Below are positions 8,381 to 64,000 of a stretch of DNA of 64,000 bases, piece after piece. Location: contig CAZQSY010000006.1 in NCBI GenBank assembly GCA_964596395.1, forward strand, positions 153 through 64,152. Direction: 5' to 3'. Position 1 is the stretch's first letter. Every line of letters starts with the position of its first letter. The translations under genes and the position numbers were made by a program. Origin of the DNA: an uncultured Candidatus Saccharibacteria bacterium (GTDB lineage: Bacteria > Patescibacteriota > Minisyncoccia > Phycocordibacterales > UBA9973). The notes under the pieces are model-generated. The model saw only the letters and a list, made by a program, of their open reading frames with translations, had not been told where the DNA came from and did not search any database.

Positions 8381-8387
8381 AAGTATT

Positions 8388-8828: not shown

Positions 8829-8834
8829 AGCAAA

Positions 8835-9296: not shown

Positions 9297-9301
9297 AAAA
9301 T

Positions 9302-12983: not shown

Positions 12984-12988
12984 GGGGT

Positions 12989-23675: not shown

Positions 23676-23681
23676 GGTTAA

Positions 23682-24065: not shown

Positions 24066-24076
24066 ATAAAAAAATT

Positions 24077-24790: not shown

Positions 24791-24900
24791 GTATCCACAC
24801 CTGCAATTGCGCTTTTTATCGGGTTCCTAGTATAATTATTGAAACATTATCAGGTCGTTCGCCGAATAGGCGAAATTATTAGAAAATTTTAAAAAATTTA

Positions 24901-25278
24901 ATGAAGAAAACTTTAATTGGTTTGTCCGGCTTGACTGCAGTTTTCCTGCCGATGGTTGCTTTCGCGCAAGGGGGATGCGGCGGAACCGGCAATGTTCCGG
25001 GAACTATTGAGGGAATGATTTGCAAAATCGGGGACATCTTGTCCATAATCATACCGATATTGATTGTTTTGGGCGTGCTTTACTTCGTCTGGGGTGTTGT
25101 GCAGTATGTTATATCCGATGACGAGGAAGCCAAGACCAAGGGCCGCGATAGAATGATTTACGGAATCATCGGTTTAGTGGTGATTGTTGCCATGTGGGGT
25201 TTGGTGCGGCTGGTGATTTCTACTTTTAGTTTAGACGCTGACAACACGCCTCTTCCGCCCCCAGGAGTGCAGTACTAA
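24901..25278 (+). CDS. VirB2/TrbC-like T4SS-pilin-like small membrane protein
   Basis: IIPILIVLGVLYFVWGVVQYVISDDEEAKTKGRDRMIYGIIGLVVIVAMWGLV. Confidence 0.55.
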   Translation: MKKTLIGLSGLTAVFLPMVAFAQGGCGGTGNVPGTIEGMICKIGDILSIIIPILIVLGVLYFVWGVVQYVISDDEEAKTKGRDRMIYGIIGLVVIVAMWGLVRLVISTFSLDADNTPLPPPGVQY

Positions 25279-25288
25279 ACCACCTCTC

Positions 25289-25579
25289 ATGCTCGGTTTA
25301 TTCTTTCCAAACACAGCTTACGCCAGTGTTGATACGTTCGTCGCGAACATCAACAGGATGATAATTAATCCGTTGATAAAGTTGCTCTTTGCGCTGGCGA
25401 TTGCGTATTTTCTGTGGGGGGTGTACAAGTATTTTGCCAACCCCGAAAGCGAAGAAGACAGGACACAAGGCAGACAGCACATGCTCTGGGGCATTATTGG
25501 TATCGTGGTAATGATGGGGGTATTCACGATTATCAACCTTATTACTTCGACCTTCGGTTTGCCCGCGCAAAATCCGTAG
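25289..25579 (+). CDS. VirB2/TrbC-like T4SS-pilin-like small membrane protein
   Basis: IKLLFALAIAYFLWGVYKYFANPESEEDRTQGRQHMLWGIIGIVVMMGVFTII. Confidence 0.55.
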   Translation: MLGLFFPNTAYASVDTFVANINRMIINPLIKLLFALAIAYFLWGVYKYFANPESEEDRTQGRQHMLWGIIGIVVMMGVFTIINLITSTFGLPAQNP

Positions 25580-33691: not shown

Positions 33692-34219
33692 ATGAAATTT
33701 GAAGCGCTAAGCGGTAAAAGATCATACGGAATAAAAAAAGGTGCTAAAGCGGCTGTGATAACGGCAATGATGCTAGCTCCATTCGCAAAGGACGTTTTGG
33801 CTCAAGACAAAAACACAAACCCGGGTTACTCGGCTAACAGCGGGGAAATAAAACCGATTGATTTCGAATATAGCGCCCTACTGGATAGCACTGAAGCATA
33901 CGGTAAAAAACTGAAGCTAGAAGAAAACCCTTTAAGTATAAAAGGTTTGGAATTAGCGCTTTCTCAGGCGAATATAAAATTTACTTTTCCCGAATACAAA
34001 AAATGGGCGGATTTAGCAAAAGAGAATGGATGGACAACAGCACACCTCGCGTTTGAAAGATTTAGACAGCCGGTTGGAGTCACATCGCAACCTTCTGGAC
34101 TTCATAGAGTTCCTGAACGTATACCAAAAAATAAATATACAAATTTGGAAACAAGCGGTAATACTGGTGTAAAGAAGGTAGAGCTTAAAAAACCTTTTCC
34201 CAGAAACAAAAAGAAATAG
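33692..34219 (+). CDS. secreted hypothetical protein
   Basis: Signal-peptide-like N-terminus; no recognised domain. Confidence 0.4.
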   Translation: MKFEALSGKRSYGIKKGAKAAVITAMMLAPFAKDVLAQDKNTNPGYSANSGEIKPIDFEYSALLDSTEAYGKKLKLEENPLSIKGLELALSQANIKFTFPEYKKWADLAKENGWTTAHLAFERFRQPVGVTSQPSGLHRVPERIPKNKYTNLETSGNTGVKKVELKKPFPRNKKK

Positions 34220-34256
34220 AATTTTGTTAAACTTTTGAAAGTGTTATAATACCGCT

Positions 34257-34997
34257 ATGGATATCAAGGATTTAAACAAACCTCAGCTTATTCTGCTTGC
34301 CCTGCTTATTTCTTTTGTCACTTCGCTGGCCACCGGCATTACCACGGTGACTTTGATGCAGCAGGCGCCCGATACTGTAACTACGCCGATTACCAACGTG
34401 GTAAGACAAACGGTAGAGAAGATAGTGCAGGTGCCGGGAAAAACCGCCGTGCAGACAGTGGTCATAAAAGAAGAAGACCTGGTGGTGGACGCGATAGAAA
34501 AAAATAAATCAGCTCTCTTTTCTTTGACGAAAGAATGGAAGGATAATGATGGGAATGCAATGCAGGCCTCCGCGGGGTACGGATTCGCAGTTTCTGAGGA
34601 CGGGATACTGGTCGCCGACAGTTTTCTGATTTCTCCGGAAGAAAATTACTACGCGGAAAATGAAAGCGGAAAGTTCAAAGCGACTCCGATTGCTTCGCAG
34701 GGAAAAAAGGACTTTGTTTTTTTGAAAATCGGAGAGCCCTTGGACCCCGCGAGTAAAATTTCTTTTTCCGTACCCGAGGCGGGCGATATCGGCCAAATGA
34801 AAGCCGGCCAGAAAATTTTGATTTTGGGGGAATCAGTGTCCTCGCTCTTTCTTTCTGGAAGCAAAGAGCTGAAAATACCCGGCGCAAGCGGGGGCTCTCT
34901 GGTACTGAATCTTGAAGGGCAGGCGCTCGGCATGGTTTCTTCGGCCGGCGAAGTAAAGTTTGTTCCGATAGATAAAATTCTTGAATCCCTAATTTAA
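34257..34997 (+). CDS. membrane-anchored trypsin-like serine protease (HtrA/DegP catalytic domain only, no PDZ)
   Basis: TM anchor; GASGGSLVLNLEGQALGMVS resembles the catalytic-serine segment GNSGGPLVN..G.VIGI. Confidence 0.6.
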   Translation: MDIKDLNKPQLILLALLISFVTSLATGITTVTLMQQAPDTVTTPITNVVRQTVEKIVQVPGKTAVQTVVIKEEDLVVDAIEKNKSALFSLTKEWKDNDGNAMQASAGYGFAVSEDGILVADSFLISPEENYYAENESGKFKATPIASQGKKDFVFLKIGEPLDPASKISFSVPEAGDIGQMKAGQKILILGESVSSLFLSGSKELKIPGASGGSLVLNLEGQALGMVSSAGEVKFVPIDKILESLI

Positions 34998-42842: not shown

Positions 42843-43871
42843 ATGTCTACACTTTCCTTTAAACCAAAACAAGTAACTAAGAGAATAACTTCCCACCTGC
42901 AGGACCGCATGCGGGATATCATTCTCAACCGTTTCGGCTTGACGGCTGACGTACGCAAAAAAACGCTGGACGAAATCGGCAAAAAATACAGCATCACCCG
43001 CGAGCGCGTTCGCCAGATAGAGGATGTCGCGATTAAAATGATAAAAAAGTCGGCTGTTTATCATGAAGAGCAGAAAATTTTTGAAGAACTGAAAGAGCTA
43101 GTTCATTCCCTGGGAGGGATTGTTGCCGAACACGACCTGCTTTCGCACGTTTCCAAAGATAAAAACACTCAAAATCACATCCGTTTTTATCTGGAACTTG
43201 GGGACTATTTCAGAAAACATCATGAAGATGAACATTTCAAAGCCCGCTGGAGTGTAGATGACGAGTTAGCCGAGAGGGTGCACAGTTCGCTGAAAAAATT
43301 GTACGAAGGACTTAAAGACGAGGAGCTTTTGCATGAGACCGAGATGATAAAAAGATTTTTGGAGCACATGAAAGACGTGGCTGAAAAGTATCAGAACGAT
43401 GAAATTGTAAAAAGGTGGCTGGCGCTCACTAAAACCATTTCCCGAAATCCGCTCGGCGAATGGGGCAAATCAACTTCGCCGAATGTTCGCACCCGCGGTG
43501 TCAAGGACTTTGCATACTTGGTTATGCGAAAGCACGGCAGCCCGATGCATTTCAAAGAAGTGGCCGACGCGATTTCAAGAACCTTCGGCAGAAAGACGCA
43601 TTATGCCACTTGCCACAACGAGCTGATTAAAGACCCGCGCTTCGTGCTGGTGGGGCGGGGGCTCTACGCGCTTTCCGAGTGGGGTTATAAGACAGGCATC
43701 GCCAGAGACGTGATACGCGATATTTTAAAAAGGGAAGGCCCGCTTTCCAAGGAACAAGTGGTAGAAAAAGTGATGAAAGAGAGATACTTCAAGAAGAACA
43801 CTATACTGGTAAATTTAGTGAATTCAAAGTATTTCAAGAAGCTGAAAAACGGCTTGTATTCCGCGGTCTAA
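42843..43871 (+). CDS. protein with N-terminal sigma-70 region-4-like HTH and long C-terminal extension
   Basis: LDEIGKKYSITRERVRQIEDVAIKMIKK matches the sigma70 r4.2 signature; no regions 2 or 3 visible. Confidence 0.45.
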   Translation: MSTLSFKPKQVTKRITSHLQDRMRDIILNRFGLTADVRKKTLDEIGKKYSITRERVRQIEDVAIKMIKKSAVYHEEQKIFEELKELVHSLGGIVAEHDLLSHVSKDKNTQNHIRFYLELGDYFRKHHEDEHFKARWSVDDELAERVHSSLKKLYEGLKDEELLHETEMIKRFLEHMKDVAEKYQNDEIVKRWLALTKTISRNPLGEWGKSTSPNVRTRGVKDFAYLVMRKHGSPMHFKEVADAISRTFGRKTHYATCHNELIKDPRFVLVGRGLYALSEWGYKTGIARDVIRDILKREGPLSKEQVVEKVMKERYFKKNTILVNLVNSKYFKKLKNGLYSAV

Positions 43872-43915
43872 ATTCTCTAGTTTCTCTTTTCTAAGAAATG
43901 TACTAAAATATACAG

Positions 43916-45316
43916 GTGCGGCATTTTCTTGAAGAGATAAAAAACTTTTGGCCGATTATTTTGTTTGTTATCTTGGCCTATTTCATAACTGCCGAAGCCG
44001 GAGCGGTGGCTTTTCGCGTTGACCTGACTGCTTTGTGGGTATACAAGGTGGCGCTGGCTCTTCTGCCGTTTCTGGCAACGGCTCTTCTGGCTTATGCCGC
44101 TTACAAAATGTGGCTTCATTATGTGCAGGCCGACTTTATTTCGGGCATTGACTGGGTATTGTTAGAGATTGTGCCACCGCGCGATGTGGTGCGCTCGCCG
44201 AAGGCCATGGAGCTTTTTATCACGAACGCCTTATATCACTGGAGCGAAAAAGGCGGGCTTGAAACCTACTGGCAGGGAGCGGTGTGGTTTTGGTTTTCGC
44301 TCGAAATTGCCTCAATCGACGGGCAGGTGCATTTTTATATTCGTACGCCGACCCGCGTGAAGGGTTTGATAGAGACCCAGATGTACGCGCAGTATCCCCA
44401 AGCGCAGGTAAAGGTGGTCGAGGACTATACTTTGGCGGTTGATAAAATCACTGCCGACAGCCCTTGGAATTTGTGGGGCTGCGAATTCAAACTCAAGAGA
44501 CCGGATGTCTTTCCCATTATGACTTATGTTGACTTCGGGCTGGATAAAGACCCGAAGGAAGAATACAAAGTTGACCCGATAACGCCGGTCGTAGAGCTTT
44601 TCGGCTCACTTCAGAAGGGAGAACAAATGTGGATGCAAATAGTGGTAAGGCCGTCTAAAAAAGAATACAAGGTGCCTGGCAAATGGTTTAAGAAGCACGA
44701 CTGGCTTACGCAAGGCGAGATTGATTTGAAAAAATACATGCAGGAGTTCACCAGATTGAACAAATCTGAAGACCCCGCGCATCCGACTGCCAAAGAAATT
44801 CGTCTGCCGGATTATTTGCAGGAAAATGTGAAGAGAGCTGGCGCTAAAATGAACAAGGTCGGTTTCGACGCGGGTATCCGTGTGTGCTATGTGGCCAAGA
44901 GAGAGCTTTTTAACATGAACAATCGCCGTAATTTGCGCTTGATTTTCCGCCAGTATGCCGCGCCTTACCGTAATGAGCTTTGGCGCTTCAACGCTACCCA
45001 GGCCGATGCTTTTGCGTCGGGCCTGTTCAGCGGTTTCTTCTTGGCTTCTAAGAAATCAATAATTCGCCTTTGCGACAGAATGCTCGAAGAATATCGCGAG
45101 CGGGAATTTTACCATCCGCCCATGCGCCACAAATTACACCTTCCTTGGCCGATATCGCCTTACATTTTTCCGAACTATTTTCACCACCACATAAATATTC
45201 TGAATACCGAAGAACTTGCCACTTTATGGCACTTCCCGGGCCAGATACTGCGTGTCCCGGCGCTCGAGCGTATAGAATCAAAAGAGGCGTCGCCCCCTAC
45301 GAACTTGCCCACGTAA
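43916..45316 (+). CDS. hypothetical membrane protein (2 N-terminal TM helices + ~400-aa soluble domain)
   Basis: Long ORF, hydrophobic N-terminus, His/Pro-rich C-terminus; no recognised motif. Confidence 0.5.
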   Translation: MRHFLEEIKNFWPIILFVILAYFITAEAGAVAFRVDLTALWVYKVALALLPFLATALLAYAAYKMWLHYVQADFISGIDWVLLEIVPPRDVVRSPKAMELFITNALYHWSEKGGLETYWQGAVWFWFSLEIASIDGQVHFYIRTPTRVKGLIETQMYAQYPQAQVKVVEDYTLAVDKITADSPWNLWGCEFKLKRPDVFPIMTYVDFGLDKDPKEEYKVDPITPVVELFGSLQKGEQMWMQIVVRPSKKEYKVPGKWFKKHDWLTQGEIDLKKYMQEFTRLNKSEDPAHPTAKEIRLPDYLQENVKRAGAKMNKVGFDAGIRVCYVAKRELFNMNNRRNLRLIFRQYAAPYRNELWRFNATQADAFASGLFSGFFLASKKSIIRLCDRMLEEYREREFYHPPMRHKLHLPWPISPYIFPNYFHHHINILNTEELATLWHFPGQILRVPALERIESKEASPPTNLPT

Positions 45317-45322
45317 AATATT

Positions 45323-46264
45323 ATGGAGAATTTTTCTCAATCGGACAACGAATCTGAATACGATTTTGAATTCCGGCGGCGGATGTCCGGTTTGGACAGA
45401 AAAATCGCCTTGGGCGCTTTTCTGGTTGTTCTGGCTCTATTTCTGGCCTATTTGTTTTTTTTCAGCCCGCCTGGGGATTTTCCGGTTGGAGAGTTTGTGA
45501 GTGTGCAAGAGGGGGCGGGTTTGCGTTCCGTTTCGCAGAGTTTAGAGGAGAGCGGAATAATCCGTTCCCGGGCCGTTTTCGAGACCTTGGTGATAACTCT
45601 GGGCAGCGACAGGCGAGTGATTGCCGGGGACTACTTTTTCGAGAGAAAGATTACTGTTTTTGAAGTTGCCCGCCGGCTGGCCAAAGGCGAACAGAACCTT
45701 TTGCCGGTACGGGTGACTATACCCGAGGGTTTTACCGCTTTGGATATTGCTACACTGTTAGCCGAAAAGCTTTCGAAATTTAATAAAGAAAATTTTCTAA
45801 AGGAAGCGAGGGAGGGGTATCTTTTCCCGGACACTTACTTTTTTACGGTCCGCGACAGCGAGACCGACGTGTTGCGTTCGATTCAGAGAAATTATGAGAA
45901 AAAAATTTCTTTAGTGCGCGAGGACATAAAGAAGAGCGGCAGAACAGAGGGGGAAATAATAACCATGGCTTCCCTAATCGAGAAAGAAGCGAACGGCGAC
46001 GGCGACCGAGAAATTATTTCCGGGATTTTATGGAAAAGGCTGGGGAAGGGTATGCCGCTTCAGGTTGACGCCGAGCCCAAGACCTACGAATCAAAGGGTC
46101 TGCCCAAGACGCCCATCGCGAATCCCGGGATGGACTCGATAAAGGCGGCCATTTACCCTAAAAGTTCGGCTTATCTTTATTATCTGCACGACAAAGACGG
46201 CAAGGTGCACTATGCCAGTACTTTGGCCGAGCATAACGCGAACATACGGAAGTATTTAAAGTAA
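45323..46264 (+). CDS. mltG: endolytic murein transglycosylase MltG (YceG family)
   Basis: TM anchor; YceG motifs GDYFFERKITVFEV, IPEGFTALDIA, EGYLFPDTYFF, ITMASLIEKEA, MPLQVDA. Confidence 0.8.
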   Translation: MENFSQSDNESEYDFEFRRRMSGLDRKIALGAFLVVLALFLAYLFFFSPPGDFPVGEFVSVQEGAGLRSVSQSLEESGIIRSRAVFETLVITLGSDRRVIAGDYFFERKITVFEVARRLAKGEQNLLPVRVTIPEGFTALDIATLLAEKLSKFNKENFLKEAREGYLFPDTYFFTVRDSETDVLRSIQRNYEKKISLVREDIKKSGRTEGEIITMASLIEKEANGDGDREIISGILWKRLGKGMPLQVDAEPKTYESKGLPKTPIANPGMDSIKAAIYPKSSAYLYYLHDKDGKVHYASTLAEHNANIRKYLK

Positions 46265-46265
46265 C

Positions 46266-46793
46266 ATGGAAAAACGCAGTTTTGCTTTCGTGGACATAGA
46301 AACCACCGGACTCGACGTAGCAGTGCACGAGATTGTTGAAATCGGGTGCGTTATAGTTAACCCCGAACTCGAAATTATCGGGACTTTTGAAGCGAAAGCA
46401 AAACCGGAACACATAGAAAACGCCGACCCGGTTTCGCTCAAGGTGAATCACTACAGCGAGAGCGGCTGGGAAAATGCGGGGACGCTAGCCGAGGCCATGA
46501 AGTCCTTCTCCGAGAAAGCCAGGGATTGCGTGATGGTGGGCCACAACGTGGCGTTTGATTCGTGTTTTTTAGAACAGGCCTTCGCGAAAACGGGGGTGAA
46601 AAATACCATGCATTACCACAAGCTCGATACTATTTCAATCGCTTGGGCCAAACTTCACGGGCGCGAAGATGTGAAGCACCTTTCGCTACGCGACCTTACC
46701 AAACATTTCGGCATAGAAAACCCAAAAGCGCACAGCGCCCTCTCCGACGCTTATGCTACGTTCGAGCTTTACAAGAAATTGATGGAGGTTTAG
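46266..46793 (+). CDS. DEDDh 3'-5' exonuclease domain protein (DnaQ/epsilon-like)
   Basis: Exo I FAFVDIETTGLD, Exo II MVGHNVAFDSCFL, Exo III HSALSDAYAT. Confidence 0.7.
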   Translation: MEKRSFAFVDIETTGLDVAVHEIVEIGCVIVNPELEIIGTFEAKAKPEHIENADPVSLKVNHYSESGWENAGTLAEAMKSFSEKARDCVMVGHNVAFDSCFLEQAFAKTGVKNTMHYHKLDTISIAWAKLHGREDVKHLSLRDLTKHFGIENPKAHSALSDAYATFELYKKLMEV

Positions 46794-46814
46794 TTTTATG
46801 TAAAGATAATTTGT

Positions 46815-47042
46815 CTATTCCTCACTTTTTATTATTTTGGCTCGCGCTGTGTTTACGAAATTATCTAACAATGAGAGTAGCTGAGGTGATGTAATTTCTC
46901 TACTCCTGAACTTTTGTAGTAGTTCTGCAAGTTTTGCTAAAATTTCCCGTTGACCCATTCTGTTGGCTACTTCAGCGATATTTGCTACTTCCCCATCGGC
47001 AAGTTGTTCAGGTTGTACGGGTGCTCTACTTTCTTTCACCAT
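46815..47042 (-). CDS. small hypothetical protein (75 aa)
   Basis: Fills the 300-bp gap between convergently/divergently arranged genes; no homology recognised. Confidence 0.3.
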   Translation of the reverse strand: MVKESRAPVQPEQLADGEVANIAEVANRMGQREILAKLAELLQKFRSREITSPQLLSLLDNFVNTARAKIIKSEE

Positions 47043-47092
47043 ATGCTTTATTTATCAAATATGTTAATAATGTAATTTATTATACCACTTTT

Positions 47093-48280
47093 ATGAAAAG
47101 CAAGAAGAAAACAATATTTGTCGGGCTTTCGGGGGGTGTGGATAGCGCTGTTTCCGCCGCTTTGCTCAAAAAAGAAGGTTGCGAAGTGGTCGGGGTTTTT
47201 ATGAAGACCTGGCACCCGGATTTTTTGCCCTGCAACGAAGAAAAAGAGCGCCGAGACGCGATGCGGGTTGCCGCGCATTTAGATATACCTTTCCTCACTT
47301 TTGATTTTGAAGAAGTTTACAAAAAGGAAGTTGCTGATTACATGATTGCCGAGTATAAAGCGGGGCGGACGCCGAATCCCGACATAATGTGCAACAAATA
47401 CGTGAAGTTCGGCGCTTTTTTAGATAAAGCGCTCTCTATGGGGGCGGATTTCGTGGCGACGGGGCACTACGCTAGGGTAGAAAAGATTTCAGCGGGAAAT
47501 GCTTTTTCTCAGGTCCTCGGGTCGCCCGCGCAGAATTTTTTTAAGGAGCGGGCTCAACCAGACCGTTCGAAAAAGCATTTCCCGCTTTCATTACTAAAAG
47601 GCAAAGACCCCGCCAAAGACCAAAGTTATTTTCTTTGGACCCTGACGCAAAAACAACTGTCTAAAATTTTGTTCCCCGTTGGCCATTTGCCGAAGCCCGA
47701 AGTTCGCAAGGTTGCCAAAAAAATCGGGCTTCCGGTCTCAGAAAAAAAAGACAGCCAGGGAATCTGTTTTTTGGGCGAAGTGGATTTGAAAAAATTCCTG
47801 AAGCACTACATCAAAGAAAAGAAGGGAAAAGTTTTGCGCGCCGAAGACGGCGCGGAAATCGGATATCATGACGGAACGGTTTTCAGCACTTTGGGCGAGC
47901 GTCACGGATTCACCATTACCAAGAAAAACCCGAACGACGGGCCGTACTACATAGTGAGTAAAGATTTAGAAAAAAATGTTTTGATAGTTTCATCCAGGCA
48001 AGGCCTAGCTCAAAATCATTCTAACATTCCCTGCTTGCCGGACAGGCAGGTAACGAACATTAGAATAAGAAATATTAATTGGGTTTCTGATATTCCTGAG
48101 GCCGAAAAAAAATACACCGCCCAAATCCGCTACCACGGAGAATTTTTGCCATGCAAGATTGAATGCAAAACGCCGGATGCCGGGCAGGCGGTTTTCGATA
48201 GGCCCGTTTTGGTTGCGCCCGGGCAATCTTTGGTTCTATACGATCAAGATGTTTGTCTAGGCGGTGGAATTGTGCGATAA
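47093..48280 (+). CDS. mnmA: tRNA-specific 2-thiouridylase MnmA
   Basis: PP-loop VGLSGGVDSAVSA; catalytic Cys region DIMCNKYVKFGAF; start trimmed to MKSKKK (track ORF extended upstream). Confidence 0.85.
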   Translation: MKSKKKTIFVGLSGGVDSAVSAALLKKEGCEVVGVFMKTWHPDFLPCNEEKERRDAMRVAAHLDIPFLTFDFEEVYKKEVADYMIAEYKAGRTPNPDIMCNKYVKFGAFLDKALSMGADFVATGHYARVEKISAGNAFSQVLGSPAQNFFKERAQPDRSKKHFPLSLLKGKDPAKDQSYFLWTLTQKQLSKILFPVGHLPKPEVRKVAKKIGLPVSEKKDSQGICFLGEVDLKKFLKHYIKEKKGKVLRAEDGAEIGYHDGTVFSTLGERHGFTITKKNPNDGPYYIVSKDLEKNVLIVSSRQGLAQNHSNIPCLPDRQVTNIRIRNINWVSDIPEAEKKYTAQIRYHGEFLPCKIECKTPDAGQAVFDRPVLVAPGQSLVLYDQDVCLGGGIVR

Positions 48281-48287
48281 TTAAAAA

Positions 48288-48767
48288 ATGAACGAATTTT
48301 TTGTTCAAAACGGGGAAGTAGCAATTCGGCTCGCGATAGCCGTCGTTTTAGGTGCGCTTATAGGTGCCGAGCGCCTACTAGTACGCAAGGACGCGGGAGT
48401 CAAAACGCACGCACTGGTGTCTTTGGGGGCGGCGCTTTTTGTCATCGTTTCGGAAGCCATGGCTGCGAAATACAGCTCTTTTGGAAATTTTGACCCGAGC
48501 CGTATAGCCTCGCAGATAGTGGTAGGCATAGGTTTCCTGGGAGCGGGTCTCATAATTTTCCAAGACAACAAGCTTTTAGGGCTTACCACAGCGAGCGGAC
48601 TTTGGGTGACAGCTGGCATTGGCACGGCCGCCGGTTTTGGTCTCTTTGGGATAGCTCTTATTGCCACATTGCTTGTACTTGTCGTGCTTACGATTATGTT
48701 TTTTGTCGAGAGACCCATAAGGAGAATTTCGGAAAAGAACTTTGAGAATTATAATTCTAGAAGTTGA
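48288..48767 (+). CDS. MgtC/SapB family membrane protein
   Basis: RLAIAVVLGALIGAER...GVKTHALVSLGAALFVI...GLWVTAGIGTAAG. Confidence 0.7.
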   Translation: MNEFFVQNGEVAIRLAIAVVLGALIGAERLLVRKDAGVKTHALVSLGAALFVIVSEAMAAKYSSFGNFDPSRIASQIVVGIGFLGAGLIIFQDNKLLGLTTASGLWVTAGIGTAAGFGLFGIALIATLLVLVVLTIMFFVERPIRRISEKNFENYNSRS

Positions 48768-48773
48768 TTTTTT

Positions 48774-50621
48774 ATGCAATCAGGCGAAATACGCTCAAGG
48801 TTTTTGAAGTTTTTTGAAGAAAGGGGGCATAAAATAATTCCCTCGGCTCCACTTGTTCCTGTTAACGACCCTAGCACCCTTTTTACCGGCTCTGGCATGC
48901 AACCAATGGTTCCATATCTGCTCGGCGAGCCACATCCTCTCGGTAAACGCATTGCTGATTCTCAAAAATCTTTCCGTACCGTTGATATAGACGAGGTTGG
49001 AGATAATCGTCACACTACTTTTTTCGAGATGCTTGGCAACTGGTCCTTGGGAGATTATTTCAAGAAAGAACAAATTAAATGGGTGTTTGAATTTCTCGTT
49101 GATGGTATCGGACTTAATCCCAAAAAACTCTATGTCTCTGTTTTTATTGGCGATGAGAAAAACAATATTCCTAAAGATCCGGAATCGGCCAGTTTTTGGA
49201 AAGCCCTGTTTGAAGAAAAAGGCATAGAGGCGAAGGAAATTAATATCGGTAGTGAAGAAAACGGATACAGGGTTGGCATGCAGGGTGGCCGTATATTTTA
49301 CTACGACGTGAAAAAAAATTGGTGGAGCCGCGCGGGTACTCCGGATGATATGCCCGTGGGAGAACCGGGCGGTCCCGACTCGGAAGTTTTCTACGAATTT
49401 GAAGGAATTGAGCATAACCCTAAGTTTGGCGAGTATTGTCATCCTAACTGCGACTGTGGAAGATTTTTAGAGATAGGTAACAGTGTTTTTATGGAGTACA
49501 AGAAAAATGAGGATGGCACTTTTTCCAAATTACCGAAACAAAACGTTGATTTTGGCGGGGGCCTAGAGCGCATTACCATGGCGGTAAATAATAATCCAGA
49601 CATCATCAAAACCAACCACGGTTACATTCTTGATTTTCTCGAAAGAATTTCCGGTAGGAAGTACGGAGAAAAAATCGAAGACACAAAAGCTTTTCGTGTT
49701 ATTTCAGACCATATGAAAGCAGCCGTATTTTTGATTGCCGATGGTGTTACTCCATCTAATACCGAACGTGGTTATTTTATTAGACGACTAATTCGCCGCG
49801 CGGTCCTATTTTCCGATAAACTAGGCATAGAGCATAGTGGTTTAGCCCATGTAACCGATTCAATAGTTGAATCTTACAGAGATATATATCCCGACACGTA
49901 TGAAAAAAGAGAACAAGTTAAAAAGGAAATTTCACTCGAAGAGCAAAAGTTTAGAGAAACACTTGCAAGAGGAATGAAAGAATTTGAAAGAGGTACCGAC
50001 CCGTTCGTTTTATTCACTACTTACGGATTTCCTATTGAACTAACCCAAGAAATTGCGAAAGAACGAGGCAAAGAAATCGATATTGAAGATTTTCGCAAAA
50101 AGATGGCCGAGCATCAAAAACTTTCACAAACTGCTTCGGCTGGCATGTTCAAAGGGGGACTTGCGAACCACAACGAAAAAACAGTCAAATTGCACACCGC
50201 GCACCACCTTCTGCTTGCTGGTTTGCAAAATGTCGTGGGGAAAAGTGTAAAACAGAGGGGGAGCAATATAAATGAAGAGCGTTTGCGTATGGATTTCATA
50301 TGCGACCATAAACTAACCGAGGAAGAAAAGAAGAAAGTGGAAGATTTTGTGAATGAAAAAATAAAACAGGGTTTAAATGTCGTGCGCCGCGAAATGCCGC
50401 TCGAGGAAGCGCAGAAATTGGGCGCCGAGATGGAATTCGGTGCTAAATATCCCGATGTCGTTTCGGTTTATTTTGTGGAGGACGGGGAGGGGAATATTAT
50501 TTCAAAAGAATTCTGCGGCGGACCGCATGTGAAAAATACTTCTGAACTTGGCCCTTTCAAAATACAAAAAGAAGAAGCCGTTTCCGCCGGTATTCGCCGC
50601 ATCAAGGCGATGTTAGCTTAG
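48774..50621 (+). CDS. alaS: alanyl-tRNA synthetase (short form lacking the C-terminal C-Ala domain)
   Basis: Catalytic-domain motifs (RFLKFFEERGHKIIPSAPLVP, FTGSGMQ, GNWSLGDYFK) and editing-domain HTAHHLL plus CGGPHV. Confidence 0.9.
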   Translation: MQSGEIRSRFLKFFEERGHKIIPSAPLVPVNDPSTLFTGSGMQPMVPYLLGEPHPLGKRIADSQKSFRTVDIDEVGDNRHTTFFEMLGNWSLGDYFKKEQIKWVFEFLVDGIGLNPKKLYVSVFIGDEKNNIPKDPESASFWKALFEEKGIEAKEINIGSEENGYRVGMQGGRIFYYDVKKNWWSRAGTPDDMPVGEPGGPDSEVFYEFEGIEHNPKFGEYCHPNCDCGRFLEIGNSVFMEYKKNEDGTFSKLPKQNVDFGGGLERITMAVNNNPDIIKTNHGYILDFLERISGRKYGEKIEDTKAFRVISDHMKAAVFLIADGVTPSNTERGYFIRRLIRRAVLFSDKLGIEHSGLAHVTDSIVESYRDIYPDTYEKREQVKKEISLEEQKFRETLARGMKEFERGTDPFVLFTTYGFPIELTQEIAKERGKEIDIEDFRKKMAEHQKLSQTASAGMFKGGLANHNEKTVKLHTAHHLLLAGLQNVVGKSVKQRGSNINEERLRMDFICDHKLTEEEKKKVEDFVNEKIKQGLNVVRREMPLEEAQKLGAEMEFGAKYPDVVSVYFVEDGEGNIISKEFCGGPHVKNTSELGPFKIQKEEAVSAGIRRIKAMLA

Positions 50622-50654: not shown

Positions 50655-51860
50655 ATGGGGATTTTTTCCAAGCGTGAAAAAGAAGAAAACCTTTTTCTCC
50701 TTTTTGATGTCGGTTCTGCTTCGGTTGGCGGGGCCTTGTTCAAGGCCGGTGGTTCCCGGGTTCCGGAAGTTATTTTCTGCGCGCGCGAAAGCATCGACTT
50801 TGAAGAAAAGATAGAGCCGGAGAAGTTTTTTTCTTCTACTTTGCGCGCGTTGAACGCGGTTACCGGCAAAATTCATCTCTCGGGTCTAGGCAGGCCGGAG
50901 AAAATTTTTTGCGTGCTTTCGTCTCCCTGGTACGTATCGCAGACCAGATTTATCAAGCTTGAAAAAAACACGCCTTTCGTTTTCACCGAGAAGGTCGCCG
51001 ACGAGCTGATTCAGAAAGAAATAGAAATTTTGGAAAAAGAAAACACGGAAAAGTTTGGAAAAGAGTCGAAAAAAATCCGGCCGATAGAATTCAAGAGCAT
51101 GAAGACCTTCTTGAACGGCTATCCGATTGCGAATCCTTACGGCAAGAAAGCCAGGATTCTGGAAATGCCCGCTTTCATTTCTGCCGGAGCGGAAAAGATT
51201 TTGAAGAAGATGGAGCAAACAATAAGGAAACATTTCCATACGGAAAATGTGAAGTTCATGTCTTTCGCCATGGCGCAGTTCGCGGTGGCGCGGGACGTCT
51301 GGCGCGATAAAGAAAATTTTCTTCTGGTGGATATTGCCGGCGAAGTAACCGATGTCTCGATAGTCAAAAAAGAAGTGCTACACAATTCTGTCTCTTATCC
51401 GCTCGGGCGCAATTTTATCATCCGAAAAATCGCGCAGGAATTCGGTTTTACCTTAAACGAAGCCGAGTCGGTCATATCGCTTTATATCCAAGGACACGCC
51501 GATAAATCCCTGCTCAGGAAGATTCTGCCTTTTATGAAAGAGGCCGAAAGCGATTGGCTCAGGGGCTTTCAGCAGTCCTTGATAAAAATATCCAACGATA
51601 TTTCAATCCCGGCCGATGTTTTTATGTCGGCGGACAGGCAATTTGAAAAATTTTTCGGAGATATCATAGAGACGGAACAATTTAGCCAGTACACCCTGAC
51701 CGAGTCGAAATTTCGGGTTGTTCCGATGAATACCGAAATACTGCACGGCTTGGCGTCTTTCAAAGAAGGAGTGAAGCGCGACCCTTTCATAATCGCGGGT
51801 ATTTTTTATGCAAGCCGTTTTTTGCTGGCGCCCGCCTTGGGTAGCGGAACGAGGATTTAA
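50655..51860 (+). CDS. actin-like ATPase-fold protein (FtsA/PilM-like)
   Basis: LLFDVGSASVGGALF (phosphate-1-like) and LLVDIAGEVTDVSIV...LGRNFIIRKIAQEFG (phosphate-2/adenosine-like) arranged as in FtsA/PilM. Confidence 0.4.
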   Translation: MGIFSKREKEENLFLLFDVGSASVGGALFKAGGSRVPEVIFCARESIDFEEKIEPEKFFSSTLRALNAVTGKIHLSGLGRPEKIFCVLSSPWYVSQTRFIKLEKNTPFVFTEKVADELIQKEIEILEKENTEKFGKESKKIRPIEFKSMKTFLNGYPIANPYGKKARILEMPAFISAGAEKILKKMEQTIRKHFHTENVKFMSFAMAQFAVARDVWRDKENFLLVDIAGEVTDVSIVKKEVLHNSVSYPLGRNFIIRKIAQEFGFTLNEAESVISLYIQGHADKSLLRKILPFMKEAESDWLRGFQQSLIKISNDISIPADVFMSADRQFEKFFGDIIETEQFSQYTLTESKFRVVPMNTEILHGLASFKEGVKRDPFIIAGIFYASRFLLAPALGSGTRI

Positions 51861-51901: not shown

Positions 51902-53161
51902 ATGACCAAAAGAATACTTCAGGATATGGTAAAGGTGAGAAAATCGCCGCCCGAGGCCATAAGGCCGCCGAGGGAAAGGGAAGAAAATATTTTCCCCGCG
52001 CGAGAGAGGCCGAAGGTTTTGAAGACCGATTCGAAATATGGAATTTATTTCGTCGCGCTGGTTTCCGTCGTTTCTTTACTTTTCGCGCTCTCATATCTTT
52101 TTTCCGGGGTGAAAATCACTCTGACCCCGAAGACGGAAGAAATACAGTTCAAGAAAAGTTTCTCTGCCTCTGGCGCGAACAGTTCAGCCGACCTTTCCTT
52201 CGAGACGGTGGTTCTCACCGGGGAACAGAGCAAGACCATTTTGGCCGGCGAGCAAAAAGACGTGAAGATTCCGGCTAAAGGCACCGTGGTTATCTACAAT
52301 TCGTTCAGTTCTTCCCCACAGGCGCTGGATATAGATACACGGCTGGAGGGTTCGAACGGCAAACTATACAAGACCGACCAGAAGATAACGGTGCCAGGCA
52401 TGAAAGAAGACGGCAAGCCAGGAAGTGTGGAAGTCGGGATACATGCCTCTGAAGGAGGTCCTTCATACAACAGCGGGCCGCTTGATTTTAAAATTTTTGG
52501 TTTCAAGGGAACTCCGAAATACGCGAAATTTTACGGCCGGTCAAAAGGCGACATAGCCGGCGGTTTCGAAGGAAAGTCGCCGGTGGTTTCTTCGCTCGAC
52601 AAGAGTATTGCCGTAAACGATTTGAAGTCGAAACTCAAAGATGGTCTTCTCCCTAAGATCGGCGCGCAGATACCGCAGGGCTTTGTGTTTTTCAAAAACG
52701 CGGCTTTTCTCTCGGTGGATGACAGGCAAACCATCGTTTCCGCCTCGGGGGAAGATATGGCATTGGTAACCATCAAGGGTTCTCTGTACGGCGTGCTTTT
52801 TGACGAGAAAAAATTAGCCAAGAAAATCGCAGAGACGGTGGTTGACAAATATGACGGGAGTGAAATTTATATACCGAATATCCGTGAGCTCGAGTTTTCC
52901 CTGCCCGGCGCAGAGGACATAAATTTTGCCGAAGCAAAAAGCATAAACTTCTCTCTTTCCGGCACGCCGAAGATTGTCTGGAGAGTTGACGAGGGCAAGT
53001 TCGTCTCTGACCTGCTTCGAAAAGAAAAAAGCGAATTCAATAACATTCTCTCGAAACACACCAGCATCTCTACTGCCAAATTGGTCATACGTCCGTTCTG
53101 GAAAGGTTCTTTTCCGGAAAAAGCGGAAGACATACAAATCATCGTCAACTATCCGCAGTAA
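51902..53161 (+). CDS. bitopic membrane protein, hypothetical (possible partner of the FtsA/PilM-like protein)
   Basis: Basic cytoplasmic N-terminus, one TM helix, ~330-aa extracytoplasmic beta-rich domain. Confidence 0.45.
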   Translation: MTKRILQDMVKVRKSPPEAIRPPREREENIFPARERPKVLKTDSKYGIYFVALVSVVSLLFALSYLFSGVKITLTPKTEEIQFKKSFSASGANSSADLSFETVVLTGEQSKTILAGEQKDVKIPAKGTVVIYNSFSSSPQALDIDTRLEGSNGKLYKTDQKITVPGMKEDGKPGSVEVGIHASEGGPSYNSGPLDFKIFGFKGTPKYAKFYGRSKGDIAGGFEGKSPVVSSLDKSIAVNDLKSKLKDGLLPKIGAQIPQGFVFFKNAAFLSVDDRQTIVSASGEDMALVTIKGSLYGVLFDEKKLAKKIAETVVDKYDGSEIYIPNIRELEFSLPGAEDINFAEAKSINFSLSGTPKIVWRVDEGKFVSDLLRKEKSEFNNILSKHTSISTAKLVIRPFWKGSFPEKAEDIQIIVNYPQ

Positions 53162-58572: not shown

Positions 58573-59091
58573 CTATCCGTTTGCGCTTTTCAAAAAAGCG
58601 TGCCTGGTCTTTTCATCTATTTTATTTGAGACGATTATCATGAGTTCAGAGAGAAGCCCCATGTCTTTTTTAATATTTTCAAAAAGAAATTCGTACGGAT
58701 ATGGGGAAATCCAGACGGTATTTTTTACGCACCGGAAGCCGGCTTTTTTCAGTAGGTAGCGTAGCGCCTCGCGTTCGTTTTTTCTTTCTTCAGGCATGTC
58801 TAAAATAACGATTCGCCAAAAACCGTCCCAGGCGGGGGATACCAGAGCGCCTTCGCCTTCGAGTTTTATGCGGTCCAACTTTTCTTTGCCGGCCTTGGTA
58901 AGACGCAGGTAGCTTTTGTTGTCTGATTTTATTATTTCCACGCACCCTGCGGTGGCCAGGTTTTTTATCGAACGGTTTATGGCATATCTGGTTTTTTTGT
59001 CTGTCTTTTCCGCGATGGATTCTATCGAGACAACCCTTTTTTCAGCCAATTTTTTCAATATTTTACCGGAATATTCTTTTCTGCTTGACAT
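58573..59091 (-). CDS. PaaX-family-like transcriptional regulator (wHTH plus C-terminal PaaX-type domain), divergent from dnaK
   Basis: C-terminal WDGFWRIVILDMPEERKNEREALRYLLKKAGFRCVKNTVWISP fits the PaaX pattern W.G.W..V.YDIPE..R..R..LR..L...GF..LQ.SVW..P. Confidence 0.5.
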   Translation of the reverse strand: MSSRKEYSGKILKKLAEKRVVSIESIAEKTDKKTRYAINRSIKNLATAGCVEIIKSDNKSYLRLTKAGKEKLDRIKLEGEGALVSPAWDGFWRIVILDMPEERKNEREALRYLLKKAGFRCVKNTVWISPYPYEFLFENIKKDMGLLSELMIIVSNKIDEKTRHAFLKSANG

Positions 59092-61195: not shown

Positions 61196-62887
61196 ATGCA
61201 GGCAGAAACCCGTATTTGTCAAAATTGTAGGCAAAACTTCACCATTGATTCCGACGATTTCGGCTTTTACGAAAAAATCCACGTCCCTCCGCCGACGTTT
61301 TGCCCGGAGTGCCGTAGACAAAGAAGATTGGCCTGGCGGAACGATTTTAATTTTTATAATCGTAACTGCGACTTATGTAAAAGAAATATTATCTCAGTCT
61401 ATTCTCCCGATAATCCCCAGGTAATCTATTGCAACAAATGCTGGTGGAGCGATAAATGGGACCCGAAAGCTTACACCATGGATTTTGATTTTTCAAGACC
61501 CTTTTTTGAGCAGTTTGCCGAGTTCCGGATGAAGGTTCCCGCCCTGGCGCTTTTCAACGATAATAATATTGGCAGCGAAAACTGCGAGTACACCCAAGAT
61601 TTTGCTTTCGGAAAAAATTGCTATATGTGCATGGTGGCTTGGAAGATACAGGATTGTATGTATTTCTGTTACGGAGCAGATGGAAAAGAGTTAGTTGATT
61701 CGATGGGTATATTCGATACGAGTCAAGGGCTTTATGAGGCGATGTATTCTGGCAAATGTTTCGGCTCTAGAAACATACATTATTCTTCTGCTTTGATAAA
61801 CTGTGCTTTCTGTTATGATTGCGACGGCTGCGAATACTGTTTTATGTGCGTGAATTTGAAAGGGAAAAAATATTGTGTTTTAAACAAGCAGTATAGCAGG
61901 GAAGAATATGAGAAGATTTTACAATCATATCAACTAAACACTTGGAGTGGAGTTCAAGAAGCAGAAAAGGAATTTTGGAGATTTGTGCTTACACAACCTA
62001 GGAAATTTGTGTTTTTCAGGAATTGTAAAAATTGCACGGGTAACAATTTAGTGAATAGCAAGAATGCGAAAAATGTTTTCCATGGACGAAGGTCAGAGGA
62101 TTCAAAATATTTGGAAAATGGCGATACTCAAAAAACCAGTTATGATTTGTCGGTCGGTGGAGAGCTCACGGAATGTTATGAAGGGCTTACCCCAGACCAT
62201 TCAAACAGAGCTTTATTTGTTATTTACACATGGAGGTGCGTCGATGTAGCTTACTCAGAATCTTGCCAATCTTCCCAGAATTGTTTCGGATGTATTGGGC
62301 TTAAACATGGAGAATATTCTATTTTCAATAAACAATATCCTAAGGAAGAATATCTAGAACTCAAGGAGAAAATTATAGAGCACATGAAAAAAACGGGAGA
62401 GTGGGGAGAATTTTTCCCAATGAAATTCTCGCCTTTTGCATACAACGAATCCATGGCGAATTTATCTTTCCCGATGACAGAAGAAGAGGTGATAAATTTT
62501 GGCTTGCGTTGGCAGGATAATTTACAACGAACGAGGGGAAGGACAACGTTAGAAAGTATCCCAGACAGTATTGATAATGTACCAGAAAATATTACGGACG
62601 AAATTTTAGAATGTAAAAAATGCGAAAGAAATTACAAGATAACACCAAACGAATTTTCTTTTTATAAAAAGTGGCGGATTCCCGTCCCTAGGCATTGTTT
62701 CTTTTGTCGTTTAGAAAAACGTTTTTCACTTCGAACGCCTTCTCGCCTTTGGTACCGTTCCTGCATGTGTGAAAAAGGAAATCACGGGCATGCTGGAAAA
62801 TGTCCGAATGAATTCGAAACCAGTTATGCTCCTGATCGGCCGGAAATAGTTTACTGCGAACGGTGTTACCAGCAGGAGGTTTACTGA
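61196..62887 (+). CDS. very cysteine-rich protein (~50 Cys in 563 aa) with duplicated terminal zinc-ribbon-like modules; function unknown
   Basis: N-terminal CQNCRQNFTIDSDDFGFYEKIHVPPPTFCPECRRQRRLAWRN and C-terminal CKKCERNYKITPNEFSFYKKWRIPVPRHCFFCRLEKRFSLR are paralogous; internal CYDCDGCEYCFMC and CQSSQNCFGC clusters; start trimmed to MQAETRIC. Confidence 0.6.
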   Translation: MQAETRICQNCRQNFTIDSDDFGFYEKIHVPPPTFCPECRRQRRLAWRNDFNFYNRNCDLCKRNIISVYSPDNPQVIYCNKCWWSDKWDPKAYTMDFDFSRPFFEQFAEFRMKVPALALFNDNNIGSENCEYTQDFAFGKNCYMCMVAWKIQDCMYFCYGADGKELVDSMGIFDTSQGLYEAMYSGKCFGSRNIHYSSALINCAFCYDCDGCEYCFMCVNLKGKKYCVLNKQYSREEYEKILQSYQLNTWSGVQEAEKEFWRFVLTQPRKFVFFRNCKNCTGNNLVNSKNAKNVFHGRRSEDSKYLENGDTQKTSYDLSVGGELTECYEGLTPDHSNRALFVIYTWRCVDVAYSESCQSSQNCFGCIGLKHGEYSIFNKQYPKEEYLELKEKIIEHMKKTGEWGEFFPMKFSPFAYNESMANLSFPMTEEEVINFGLRWQDNLQRTRGRTTLESIPDSIDNVPENITDEILECKKCERNYKITPNEFSFYKKWRIPVPRHCFFCRLEKRFSLRTPSRLWYRSCMCEKGNHGHAGKCPNEFETSYAPDRPEIVYCERCYQQEVY

Positions 62888-62911
62888 TAAAATATGCTAT
62901 AATTTTACGGT

Positions 62912-64000
62912 ATGGAGCTCCACGAACTGCCCAAGAACAAGGAAATAACTTACCTGGGTCTTACTACCTATAGAGACAAAAACACGCTTTTTGGAATCAA
63001 GCGCAAAGACCGGCGCCAGCATGTGTACATTCTCGGAAAATCCGGCACCGGTAAGTCGGCTCTCATGTTTAATATGATTATCCAGAACATCGAGAACGGC
63101 GATGGCGTGTGTCTTGTCGACCCGCACGGCGAAAATGTGGAAGCAGTGCTCTCGGCCATTCCGCCACACCGCATGAAGGATGTAGTTTATTTCAACCCGG
63201 CCGATACCGATTACCATATTGGTTTTAACGTGCTTGAGCTGATTGATCCGAAATACAAGCATCTAGTGGCCTCGGGTCTCATGGGAATTTTCACCAAGAT
63301 TTGGGCGAATGCCTGGAGCGCCCGCATGGAATATATTTTAAACAACGCGATTCTGGCCCTCTTGGATACTCCAGGTTCGACCTTGCTTGGTATTATGCGC
63401 ATGCTGGTGGATAAAGATTACCGCCAGAAAATAATCACCAACCTGAAAGACCCGGTGATAAAGGCATTTTGGATTCACGAGTACGAGGCCTGGCAGGATA
63501 AATTCAGGAATGAAGCTATTGCCCCGATTCAGAACAAAGTCGGGCAGTTTCTCTCTACATCTATCATCAGGAATATTGTCGGCCAATCCAAGAGCACGAT
63601 TAACATTTTTGACATCATGAACCAGGGGAAAATTTTCTTGGTGAACGTGTCAAAGGGGCGCATCGGAGAAGACAATTCGTCGCTGTTGGGAGGAATTATC
63701 ATTACCAAGATTCAGCTCGCAGCCATGGAAAGGGTGCGCATACCCGAAGAAAGCAGGAAAGATTTCTATCTGTATGTCGACGAGTTTCAGAATTTCGTAA
63801 CGCAGGCCTTTGCCGGCATTTTGTCGGAAGCCAGGAAGTACCGCTTGAATCTGACCGTCGCCCATCAATACACCGCCCAGCTTATTTCTGAAAAAAATAC
63901 CAGCGTGAAAGACGCGATTTTCGGCAACGTCGGCACGATGATAGTTTTCCGCGTCGGCGCGGACGACGCGAAGTTTTTGGAAAAAGAATTTGAGCCGGAA
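62912..64000 (+). CDS. soluble VirD4/TrwB-like type IV coupling-protein ATPase (3' end beyond window)
   Basis: Not in the ORF track (no stop in window); HVYILGKSGTGKSALMFNMIIQNIENGDGVCLVDPHGE parallels TrwB HLLVVGATGTGKSVLLRELAYTGLLRGDRMVIVDPNGD; C-terminal YVDEFQNF matches the TraG/TraD DEFqn motif; no N-terminal TM helices. Confidence 0.7.
   Translation, partial: MELHELPKNKEITYLGLTTYRDKNTLFGIKRKDRRQHVYILGKSGTGKSALMFNMIIQNIENGDGVCLVDPHGENVEAVLSAIPPHRMKDVVYFNPADTDYHIGFNVLELIDPKYKHLVASGLMGIFTKIWANAWSARMEYILNNAILALLDTPGSTLLGIMRMLVDKDYRQKIITNLKDPVIKAFWIHEYEAWQDKFRNEAIAPIQNKVGQFLSTSIIRNIVGQSKSTINIFDIMNQGKIFLVNVSKGRIGEDNSSLLGGIIITKIQLAAMERVRIPEESRKDFYLYVDEFQNFVTQAFAGILSEARKYRLNLTVAHQYTAQLISEKNTSVKDAIFGNVGTMIVFRVGADDAKFLEKEFEPE

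Follow-up and report, generated by a model that had tools for sequence, protein, structure and literature searches.

The last gene in a 64,000-nucleotide stretch from an uncultured Candidatus Saccharibacteria bacterium (assembly GCA_964596395.1, contig CAZQSY010000006.1; the whole stretch is here called the window) raises the question of what an ATPase resembling the coupling proteins of type IV secretion systems (T4SS) is doing among housekeeping genes, with no membrane anchor of its own. Profile, structural, and gene-order comparisons point to a second, separately encoded protein, DUF8128, as the likely anchor. The reading that we favor, on evidence that stands at about an even balance, is that this ATPase, a member of the VirD4/TrwB lineage that belongs to the core genome of Patescibacteria, acts as the motor of a membrane-docked complex encoded by two genes, for which a relaxase-less T4SS is the favored channel.

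A VirD4/TrwB-type ATPase without a membrane helix

The open reading frame (ORF) begins with an ATG at 62912 and is still open at the end of the window after 363 codons. Orthologs at 74–93% identity, found in Nomura-, Jorgensen-, and Harrisonbacteria and similar groups, are 595–634 aa long, in agreement with an earlier preliminary description in which the ORF was taken to be truncated by the window edge. The orthologs share the same start position, and because they begin at the same residue the N-terminus appears to be called correctly. The preceding Cys-rich gene ends with a TGA at 62885–62887, so that the intergenic gap measures 24 nt, not the 25 nt first given. A perfect TATAAT hexamer lies within this gap at 62898–62903, 8 nt 5' of the start codon, and no obvious Shine-Dalgarno sequence was seen upstream; the hexamer could mark a near-leaderless transcript, or could be a chance occurrence in AT-rich DNA.

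The fragment exceeds the gathering cut-offs of four Pfam families: TrwB_AAD_bind (41.2 bits; cut-off 20.5), DUF87 (35.6; 23.2), T4SS-DNA_transf (33.9; 20.1), and TraG-D_C (27.6; 22). Since four families do so, the ATPase motifs are not a matter of chance. Coupling-protein profiles rank first both in the fragment and in two full-length orthologs, with TrwB_AAD_bind at 41–56 bits, T4SS-DNA_transf at 32–37, and TraG-D_C at 26–31. The DUF87/HerA profile exceeds its cut-off, yet ranks under the coupling-protein models, while AAA_10 (VirB4-type; 16–21 bits, cut-off 27.5) and FtsK_SpoIIIE (17 bits, cut-off 24) both fall below theirs. When PDB sequences were searched with the ATPase, the sole matches were to TrwB of R388. 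An AlphaFold2 model of the orthologous protein P0008 (90% identity, 628 aa), made from an alignment of 77 sequences, has a mean predicted local distance difference test score (pLDDT) of 86, with the core above 95, and predicts an all-helical insertion at residues 113–237. Foldseek matched this model to TrwB (4e-13; template-modeling [TM] score on target 0.62–0.65), Cag-beta (1e-11), and HerA (1.6e-10), and at lower ranks to DotL (7.7e-10), DndH-C (2.7e-9), and VirB4 (2.8e-8).

The ATPase is a divergent member of the VirD4 lineage, outside any defined equivalog. The coupling-ATPase identity first proposed therefore holds: the profile check that was suggested for it places TrwB_AAD_bind and TraG-D_C above cut-off, and Pfam, PDB sequences, and Foldseek all put coupling proteins, and not HerA or FtsK types, first. 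The P-loop, VDPHGE, and DEFQNF motifs likewise stand as those of a T4SS coupling protein; DEFQNF, however, had been described as C-terminal and is instead the Walker B motif, at residue 290 of ~630. A HerA, FtsK, or VirB4 identity without kinship to coupling proteins, for example as a repair helicase or defense motor, is scarcely credible. HerA does score above cut-off at 35.6 bits, HerA structures are strong Foldseek matches, and PADLOC gives a weak match to mad8 and HerA; these candidates are nonetheless outranked by coupling-protein models and structures in every test, VirB4 and FtsK profiles are sub-threshold, and the neighborhoods of related loci contain no NurA, Sir2, or other HerA partner. 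A defense-system reading was separately rejected, as PADLOC returned just a modest mad8 match and weak HerA matches.

TrwB (R388), VirD4, and Cag-beta, the best sequence and fold matches at an identity of about 15%, share with the ATPase a P-loop domain of the FtsK–HerA superfamily that contains an all-alpha insertion, together with a TraG-D_C region. Unlike these proteins, the ATPase has no N-terminal membrane domain on the same polypeptide and does not adjoin relaxase or T4SS genes; its family is further distinguished by a C-terminal zinc finger, core-genome status, and very strong constraint.

A separately encoded partner, DUF8128

The highest Kyte-Doolittle value in the fragment, 1.3 over 19-mers, is below membrane-helix level, and the hydrophobicity scan found no membrane helix in the fragment or in full-length orthologs. 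The preliminary description was thus correct that the ORF lacks a membrane helix. Its further claim, that the usual anchor is absent, does not fit the gene-order data, which suggest that the DUF8128 gene at 43916–45316 encodes the anchor as a protein of its own.

Gene order was compared in 82 loci, from 80 species-representative genomes (ATPase identity 59–90%) and two metagenome loci. Paceibacteria and ABY1-type lineages share a fixed block in which SecD-SecF is followed by a Sigma70_r4/HARE-HTH gene, DUF8128, and the ATPase, with MnmA and AlaRS frequently next. Among the 75 loci with enough upstream sequence, the DUF8128 gene lies immediately 5' of the ATPase on the same strand in 46 (median gap ~5 nt) and elsewhere in the locus in eight more. 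The window contains the block at 42843–50621, where YceG, not the ATPase, follows DUF8128; the DUF8128 gene is 17.6 kb upstream of the ATPase, which in the Nomurabacteria-like clade of the window adjoins dnaK instead. The protein encoded upstream of DUF8128 phylum-wide carries an N-terminal Sigma70 region 4 followed by a HARE-HTH domain, as in RNA polymerase delta.

Fusions add to this picture. Among the 50%-identity representatives, the 150 closest in sequence include about 55 in which DUF8128 sequence is fused ahead of the ATPase core, and the best-matching fusions carry DUF8128 at full length. Two such fused genes, in loci L090 and L091, were read directly in contigs; precomputed Pfam annotation gives both DUF8128 and TrwB_AAD_bind, and the genes sit in the same sigma/HARE and SecDF neighborhood. 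From these sequence comparisons we propose that DUF8128 is a separately encoded N-terminal membrane-anchoring module of the ATPase.

More than 2,300 DUF8128 homologs were found. PF26449 is precomputed on P0399, which is 100% identical to the window protein, and on nearly all of 120 listed homologs. The protein is not an ATPase; it has two N-terminal hydrophobic helices (aa ~12–33 and ~39–64) followed by an alpha/beta domain, measures 440–520 aa across loci, and ends in a conserved tail (PPTNLP in the window protein, PPxNLP across the family). An AlphaFold2 model, from a shallow alignment (pLDDT 79), returned 14 top PDB fold matches at E ≤ 0.02, all of them TrwK/VirB4 chains (E 1e-4 to 2e-2), with TM scores of only 0.26–0.34. 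That VirB4 chains are the only fold matches at this threshold is a point in favor of a VirB4-type motor. The sequence itself, however, gave no PDB match even at E 10 and none in NCBIfam or in the Pfam set without PF26449, and hhalign of DUF8128 against two plasmid VirB4 proteins found no match. The model is a tentative hint that DUF8128 may have a fold like the VirB4 N-terminal domain. In the N-terminal domain of VirB4 (TrwK) and in VirB3-VirB4 fusions, membrane helices are likewise followed by an alpha/beta domain and then the motor; the low TM scores, the lack of sequence-level support, and a motor closer to VirD4 set the present pair apart.

A functional parallel may be found in pIP501, in which the small membrane protein TraI has been proposed as the anchor of TraJ, a coupling protein without membrane helices (PMC12857230). 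Both cases involve a Gram-positive-type motor without membrane helices and a separate membrane protein as its proposed tether. The likeness is one of description: TraI is small, with two transmembrane segments, whereas DUF8128 proteins of 440–520 aa have a large conserved soluble domain. Unlike in pIP501, fusion proteins here document directly that the motor and DUF8128 belong together.

Plasmid homologs, paralogs, and the possible origin of the split form

A tblastn search of plasmids returned 527 records, all under 60% identity to the ATPase. A Shouchella clausii plasmid (NZ_CP012476) encodes an 883-aa DUF87 protein that has a Replic_Relax relaxase, TcpC, and an AAA_10 ATPase resembling VirB4 as neighbors; residues 56–168 match DUF8128 (hhalign 95.7%, E 1e-8) and residues 326–719 match the ATPase (25% identity, E 2e-36). 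No obvious N-terminal membrane helix was apparent in this protein on sequence inspection. On an Embleya plasmid (NZ_CP108778) the gene order is PrgI, VirB4, homolog, relaxase, NlpC/P60, and the homolog (812 aa, 31% identity) carries the ATPase core at its C-terminus. Its N-terminal extension was rejected as DUF8128, as the junction motif alone aligned, and weakly; the N-terminal extension of a Bradyrhizobium homolog gave no alignment.

These long (800–900 aa) ATPases of monoderm plasmids, encoded next to Replic_Relax relaxases, share the order of a DUF8128-like N-domain followed by the ATPase (Shouchella; in Embleya, the junction motif only). They differ in being single polypeptides within conjugation clusters that contain VirB4, TcpC or PrgI, and a relaxase; only in such distant plasmid homologs is the family associated with relaxase and T4SS channel genes. 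The Shouchella and Embleya homologs indicate that the two-module protein occurs in monoderm conjugation clusters too, which fits the derivation of Patescibacteria T4SS from monoderm conjugation machinery put forward by Quinonero-Coronel et al. (2025; PMC12102498) in their account of T4SS origins. In a rough neighbor-joining tree, plasmid homologs and fused forms are basal, and forms without the N-extension make up a derived clade within which the zinc finger arises. With low confidence, this topology suggests that fission is the derived state.

The closest plasmid relative is a 395-aa protein of a Sulfitobacter plasmid (NZ_CP081110, locus L092, 7986–9173; 38.5% identity) without an N-extension; it is an orphan among transposases and a recombinase, and is alphaproteobacterial, far from Patescibacteria.

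Paralogs also occur. Of the 82 loci, 14 carry a VirD4-like paralog of ~500 aa, 47–49% identical, in the vicinity of the ATPase, and in a further two a more divergent (~35%) paralog lies between DUF8128 and the main ATPase. In close relatives the ~500-aa paralog, without a membrane helix or zinc finger, is found just upstream of dnaJ (12485–13972 in locus L001, with equivalents in L008–L018); it groups with the fused forms in the rough tree, and is probably located just past the end of the window.

Zinc finger and Cys-rich neighbors

Full-length orthologs consist of an ATPase domain to about residue 440, a zinc finger, and a low-complexity tail. In P0008 the finger is a zf_Tbcl_2/TIGR04272 domain at aa 452–485 with the pattern CxxC-x17-CxxC, PF23477 and TIGR04272 both scoring above cut-off. 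Of 75 full-length orthologs from reference genomes, 60 contain CxxC-x15–19-CxxC; at ≥70% identity the figure is 24 of 26. By comparison with these sequences, the 3' part of the gene beyond the window should complete the ATPase domain and add a CxxC-x17-CxxC zinc finger followed by a disordered tail. The CxxC-x17-CxxC domain binds zinc in small proteins of Methanosarcina (PMC12704099).

The gene immediately upstream of the ATPase encodes a Cys-rich protein in which homologous double zinc-ribbon modules, one set at each end, flank Cys-rich repeats. Its family (~565 aa) has more than 6,700 homologs, all annotated as hypothetical and without family assignment; searches of PDB, Pfam, NCBIfam, and PADLOC gave nothing significant, with zf_Tbcl sub-threshold. 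One to six paralogs, 28–50% identical to the window protein, occur beside the ATPase in 18 of the 82 loci (L001, L006, L021, L032, and L084 among them). These represent three settings: the dnaK locus of Nomurabacteria-like genomes, the elongation factor P locus of Jorgensenbacteria, and, in Kerfeld- and Staskawiczbacteria, the DUF8128-ATPase operon; L032 has its Cys-rich gene between DUF8128 and the ATPase. Because this linkage outlasts rearrangement, it suggests a functional tie, in which the Cys-rich protein might serve the ATPase as client or adaptor. In the virD4-bep locus of Bartonella, a coupling-protein gene is flanked by diverging paralogous substrate genes. The Cys-rich proteins, in contrast, have no recognized T4SS signal, and the analogy serves as a lead only.

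Pilin genes and the question of DNA transfer

The preliminary description also combined the ATPase with a pilin-like array at 22–25 kb into a T4SS-derived DNA-translocation apparatus dispersed over the chromosome. The array is indeed of VirB2 type: four genes (22470–25278) exceed the PF18895 (T4SS_pilin) cut-off and the fifth is a BLASTP paralog of genes 3 and 4. Gene 3 also passes NCBIfam NF045849, a pilin-like protein of Mycoplasma integrative conjugative elements. Two of the five tandem pilins are 58% identical, and a solute-binding protein gene (21126–22457) lies directly upstream of the array. A dispersed gene set is consistent with the T4SS survey of Quinonero-Coronel et al. (PMC12102498), which in its treatment of pilins describes arrays of 2–11 VirB2-like genes in Patescibacteria. 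A link between this array and the ATPase is possible; nothing in the window ties them. DNA translocation, in contrast, is unsupported, as the suggested check for relaxase or competence genes found neither a relaxase nor ComEC, and no VirB4, VirB6, or integrase, among the ORFs scanned in the window.

These results bear on the possibility that the ATPase serves as coupling protein within a conjugative system for DNA transfer, for example an integrated conjugative element, where it would pump relaxase-bound DNA. Its closest characterized relatives are conjugative coupling proteins, and there are pilin genes in the window. However, the relaxase, integrase, VirB4, and VirB6 of such a system are missing from the scanned ORFs. 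The flanking genes, in every related locus compared as in the window, are vertically inherited housekeeping genes, and the window otherwise encodes SecA, Mur ligases, GyrA, IF-2, ClpB, GroES/EL, TypA, AlaRS, ribosomal proteins, RpoA, GrpE, and DnaK; the ATPase itself is present phylum-wide at 59–93% identity. In the counts published for the phylum, moreover, relaxases occur in just 103 of 3,035 Patescibacteria genomes (PMC12102498). We consider a conjugative role very improbable and largely refuted.

The same published counts include 5,713 VirD4-type homologs in 2,918 of the 3,035 genomes and VirB4 in 2,407 of 3,035 assemblies (PMC12102498). For S. epibionticum, Wang et al. (2023) describe a T4SS cluster which, as presented there, has no coupling or relaxase proteins that can be recognized; in their transposon-sequencing data the T4SS genes are essential, and are shown to be essential for epibiotic growth. 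The coupling-protein homologs of the former survey and the S. epibionticum proteins SEML1_0293 and SEML1_0142 belong to the same protein family as the ATPase. SEML1_0293 (921 aa, TrwB_AAD at 402–719) is the gene directly downstream of SEML1_0294, which is essential and of the Sigma70_r4/HARE-HTH type (Wang et al., 2023), and thus shares the sigma/HARE synteny; judged by that synteny, it is a fused ortholog. The Saccharimonadia proteins appear fused, with the ATPase beginning near residue 380–400, whereas the window has the split form. The paralog SEML1_0142 (1,019 aa, P-loop region at 381–800) is reported as essential at all time points (Wang et al., 2023). Because this paralog is essential, like the T4SS itself, it supports coupling to a T4SS.

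Proposed mechanism and a T4SS-independent alternative

Under the two-gene, membrane-docked reading, the ATPase subunits would assemble into a ring, with six members if TrwB is a guide, and DUF8128 would hold this ring at the cytoplasmic membrane, an arrangement resembling the TraI-TraJ proposal for pIP501. Binding of one conserved cargo or adaptor would fall to the all-alpha domain, which is invariant, and to the tail with its zinc finger; the Cys-rich zinc-ribbon neighbors are obvious candidates for that cargo or adaptor, and ATP hydrolysis would drive the cargo to or through a membrane channel. The favored channel would be the chromosomal, relaxase-less T4SS of Patescibacteria, comprising VirB4/VirB6 and VirB2-like pili such as those encoded at 22–25 kb. 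If the channel is of this kind, the cargo is more likely to be protein or a non-conjugative nucleic acid than a relaxase-piloted DNA strand.

Several observations weigh against such a T4SS motor. Nothing physically links the ATPase to a T4SS, and our picture of DUF8128 touching the ATPase, of a ring, and of the type of cargo is inferred. Distant BLASTP queries of limited sensitivity detected no VirB4, PrgI, relaxase, or pilin in any of the 82 loci out to 10 kb from the ATPase, and the published counts place only 148 of 5,713 VirD4 homologs near virB4 (PMC12102498). The best NCBIfam scores against coupling-protein equivalogs (TraD, CD1115 VirD4-like, etc.) were 44–48 bits, compared with cut-offs of 250–366. 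In the S. epibionticum data, SEML1_0293 is scored as non-essential, although its insertion reads drop about 4-fold, from 5,817 to 1,372 (Wang et al., 2023).

The degree of conservation counts both ways. In support of the favored reading, the ATPase occurs throughout the phylum, with more than 8,000 close homologs and 6,375 clusters of 50% identity at E ≤ 1e-30, and is under strong constraint. Compared with nine close relatives, the window ATPase shows 83–90% identity; for the same genome pairs the values are 74–77% for DnaK, 77–80% for RpoA, and 56–71% for S9 and L13. In seven distant loci, ATPase identity is 59–64%, as compared with 37–48% for RpoA and 33–40% for L13, though the loci were picked by ATPase similarity and its apparent conservation may be inflated. 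Against the favored reading, conservation above that of DnaK is unlike that of the coupling proteins of mobile elements. The all-alpha domain, in plasmid coupling proteins the variable, substrate-facing part, is here conserved like the ATPase core (0.67 versus 0.65–0.68), which points to one conserved partner.

In another reading the pair has been exapted from a conjugative coupling protein for a housekeeping, membrane-based function independent of any T4SS, an alternative that we regard as a serious possibility while leaning against it. Its cargo might be a universal substrate (nucleic acid or zinc-ribbon proteins), possibly tied to SecDF or transcription genes. Conservation above DnaK and RpoA in close relatives and an invariant form of the usually variable all-alpha domain agree with it, as does the fixed order SecD-SecF / sigma-HARE / DUF8128 / ATPase / MnmA / AlaRS; synteny in reduced genomes can, however, be historical and not functional. 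Similarly, the published counts of homologs in 2,918 assemblies versus VirB4 in 2,407 speak for a function beyond the T4SS (PMC12102498), but where genome bins are incomplete, a family present in two copies should in any case turn up more often than VirB4. The syntenic ortholog SEML1_0293 is reported as non-essential in an organism whose T4SS is essential (Wang et al., 2023), and exaptation of VirD4 homologs was raised in the discussion of PMC12102498, whose authors could not rule it out. Against this alternative, neither another channel nor a substrate was identified for it. In the same S. epibionticum data, a canonical FtsK is present and essential, so that a chromosome-segregation role is not vacant, and ComEC is dispensable (Wang et al., 2023). 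The ATPase as a replacement for FtsK is likewise ruled out by that canonical, essential FtsK.

Other features of the window

Coordinates of the ATPase, its motifs, and the genes discussed above are collected in Table 1.

Table 1. Positions of the ATPase gene, its sequence motifs, and associated genes in the window
Feature	Position	Strand	Basis or remark
VirD4/TrwB-like ATPase, cytoplasmic, 5' 58% (363 of ~630 codons)	62912..64000	+	ORF, profiles, model
ATPase Walker A GKSGTGKS	aa 42-49, nt 63035-63058	+	
ATPase VDPHGE	aa 69-74, nt 63116-63133	+	
ATPase all-alpha insertion (predicted)	about 63248-63622	+	
ATPase Walker B YLYVDEFQNF	aa 286-295; DEFQNF aa 290-295, nt 63779-63796	+	
DUF8128 (PF26449) membrane protein, 466 aa, GTG start	43916-45316	+	Precomputed Pfam
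Sigma70_r4 + HARE-HTH protein, 342 aa	42843..43871	+	Directly 5' of DUF8128, conserved order
Cys-rich protein, 563 aa	61196..62887	+	Listed ORF from 61151; P0279 (100% identical) starts at Met16 = 61196
VirB2-like T4SS pilin genes, five	22470-23675, 23682-24065, 24077-24790, 24901-25278, 25289-25579	+	PF18895, BLASTP

Elsewhere in the window, a small protein containing the central Cas2-like domain of PaaX is encoded just upstream of dnaK (58573–59091, minus strand), a position that is kept in Nomurabacteria-like relatives. A MazG-like gene is followed by three tandem NUDIX hydrolase genes (7991–9736), with a fourth NUDIX gene at 20031–20522; this density of NUDIX genes is unusual for a reduced genome. 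ORFs of 410, 175, 246, and 419 aa at 12989–14221 (minus strand), 33692–34997, and 51902–53161 have no Pfam match, and a 401-aa ORF at 50655–51860 has no more than a sub-threshold match to FtsA.

Implications for Patescibacteria

The ATPase family has already been published; in the parts of Quinonero-Coronel et al. (2025) and Wang et al. (2023) that concern it, the treatment consists of counts and essentiality only. Full-text literature searches for DUF8128, PF26449, and the zinc-finger names turned up no paper that covers them in Patescibacteria. What appears to be new is the split into two genes, the pairing with DUF8128, the presence of a zinc finger, the linkage to Cys-rich genes, and how strongly the ATPase is conserved.

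A broader and, in our estimate, unlikely extension is that DUF8128, the ATPase, and the Cys-rich arrays together form an undescribed cargo-selection module of the Patescibacteria T4SS, through which macromolecules would be exchanged with the host. The split motor would recognize zinc-ribbon proteins, whether effectors or adaptors carrying nucleic acid, by means of its zinc-finger tail. On the same footing, if DUF8128 has a VirB4-like fold, its pairing with a motor like VirD4 would represent an intermediate between T4SS ATPase families. Should the extension be true, the module would be the missing substrate receptor of a relaxase-less, growth-essential T4SS.

Patescibacteria are a very large and diverse group, most members of which appear to be host-dependent, and of their machinery the T4SS alone has been shown essential for epibiotic growth. 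The present data recast the VirD4 homolog of this phylum as a two-part motor, proposed to be membrane-docked, with DUF8128 as partner, a zinc-finger tail, and recurrent Cys-rich neighbors. The vague notion of a possibly exapted coupling protein is thereby turned into testable propositions, namely anchoring by DUF8128, docking to VirB4/VirB6, and zinc-ribbon cargo, and a first context is given for two large families without assigned function, DUF8128 and the Cys-rich proteins.

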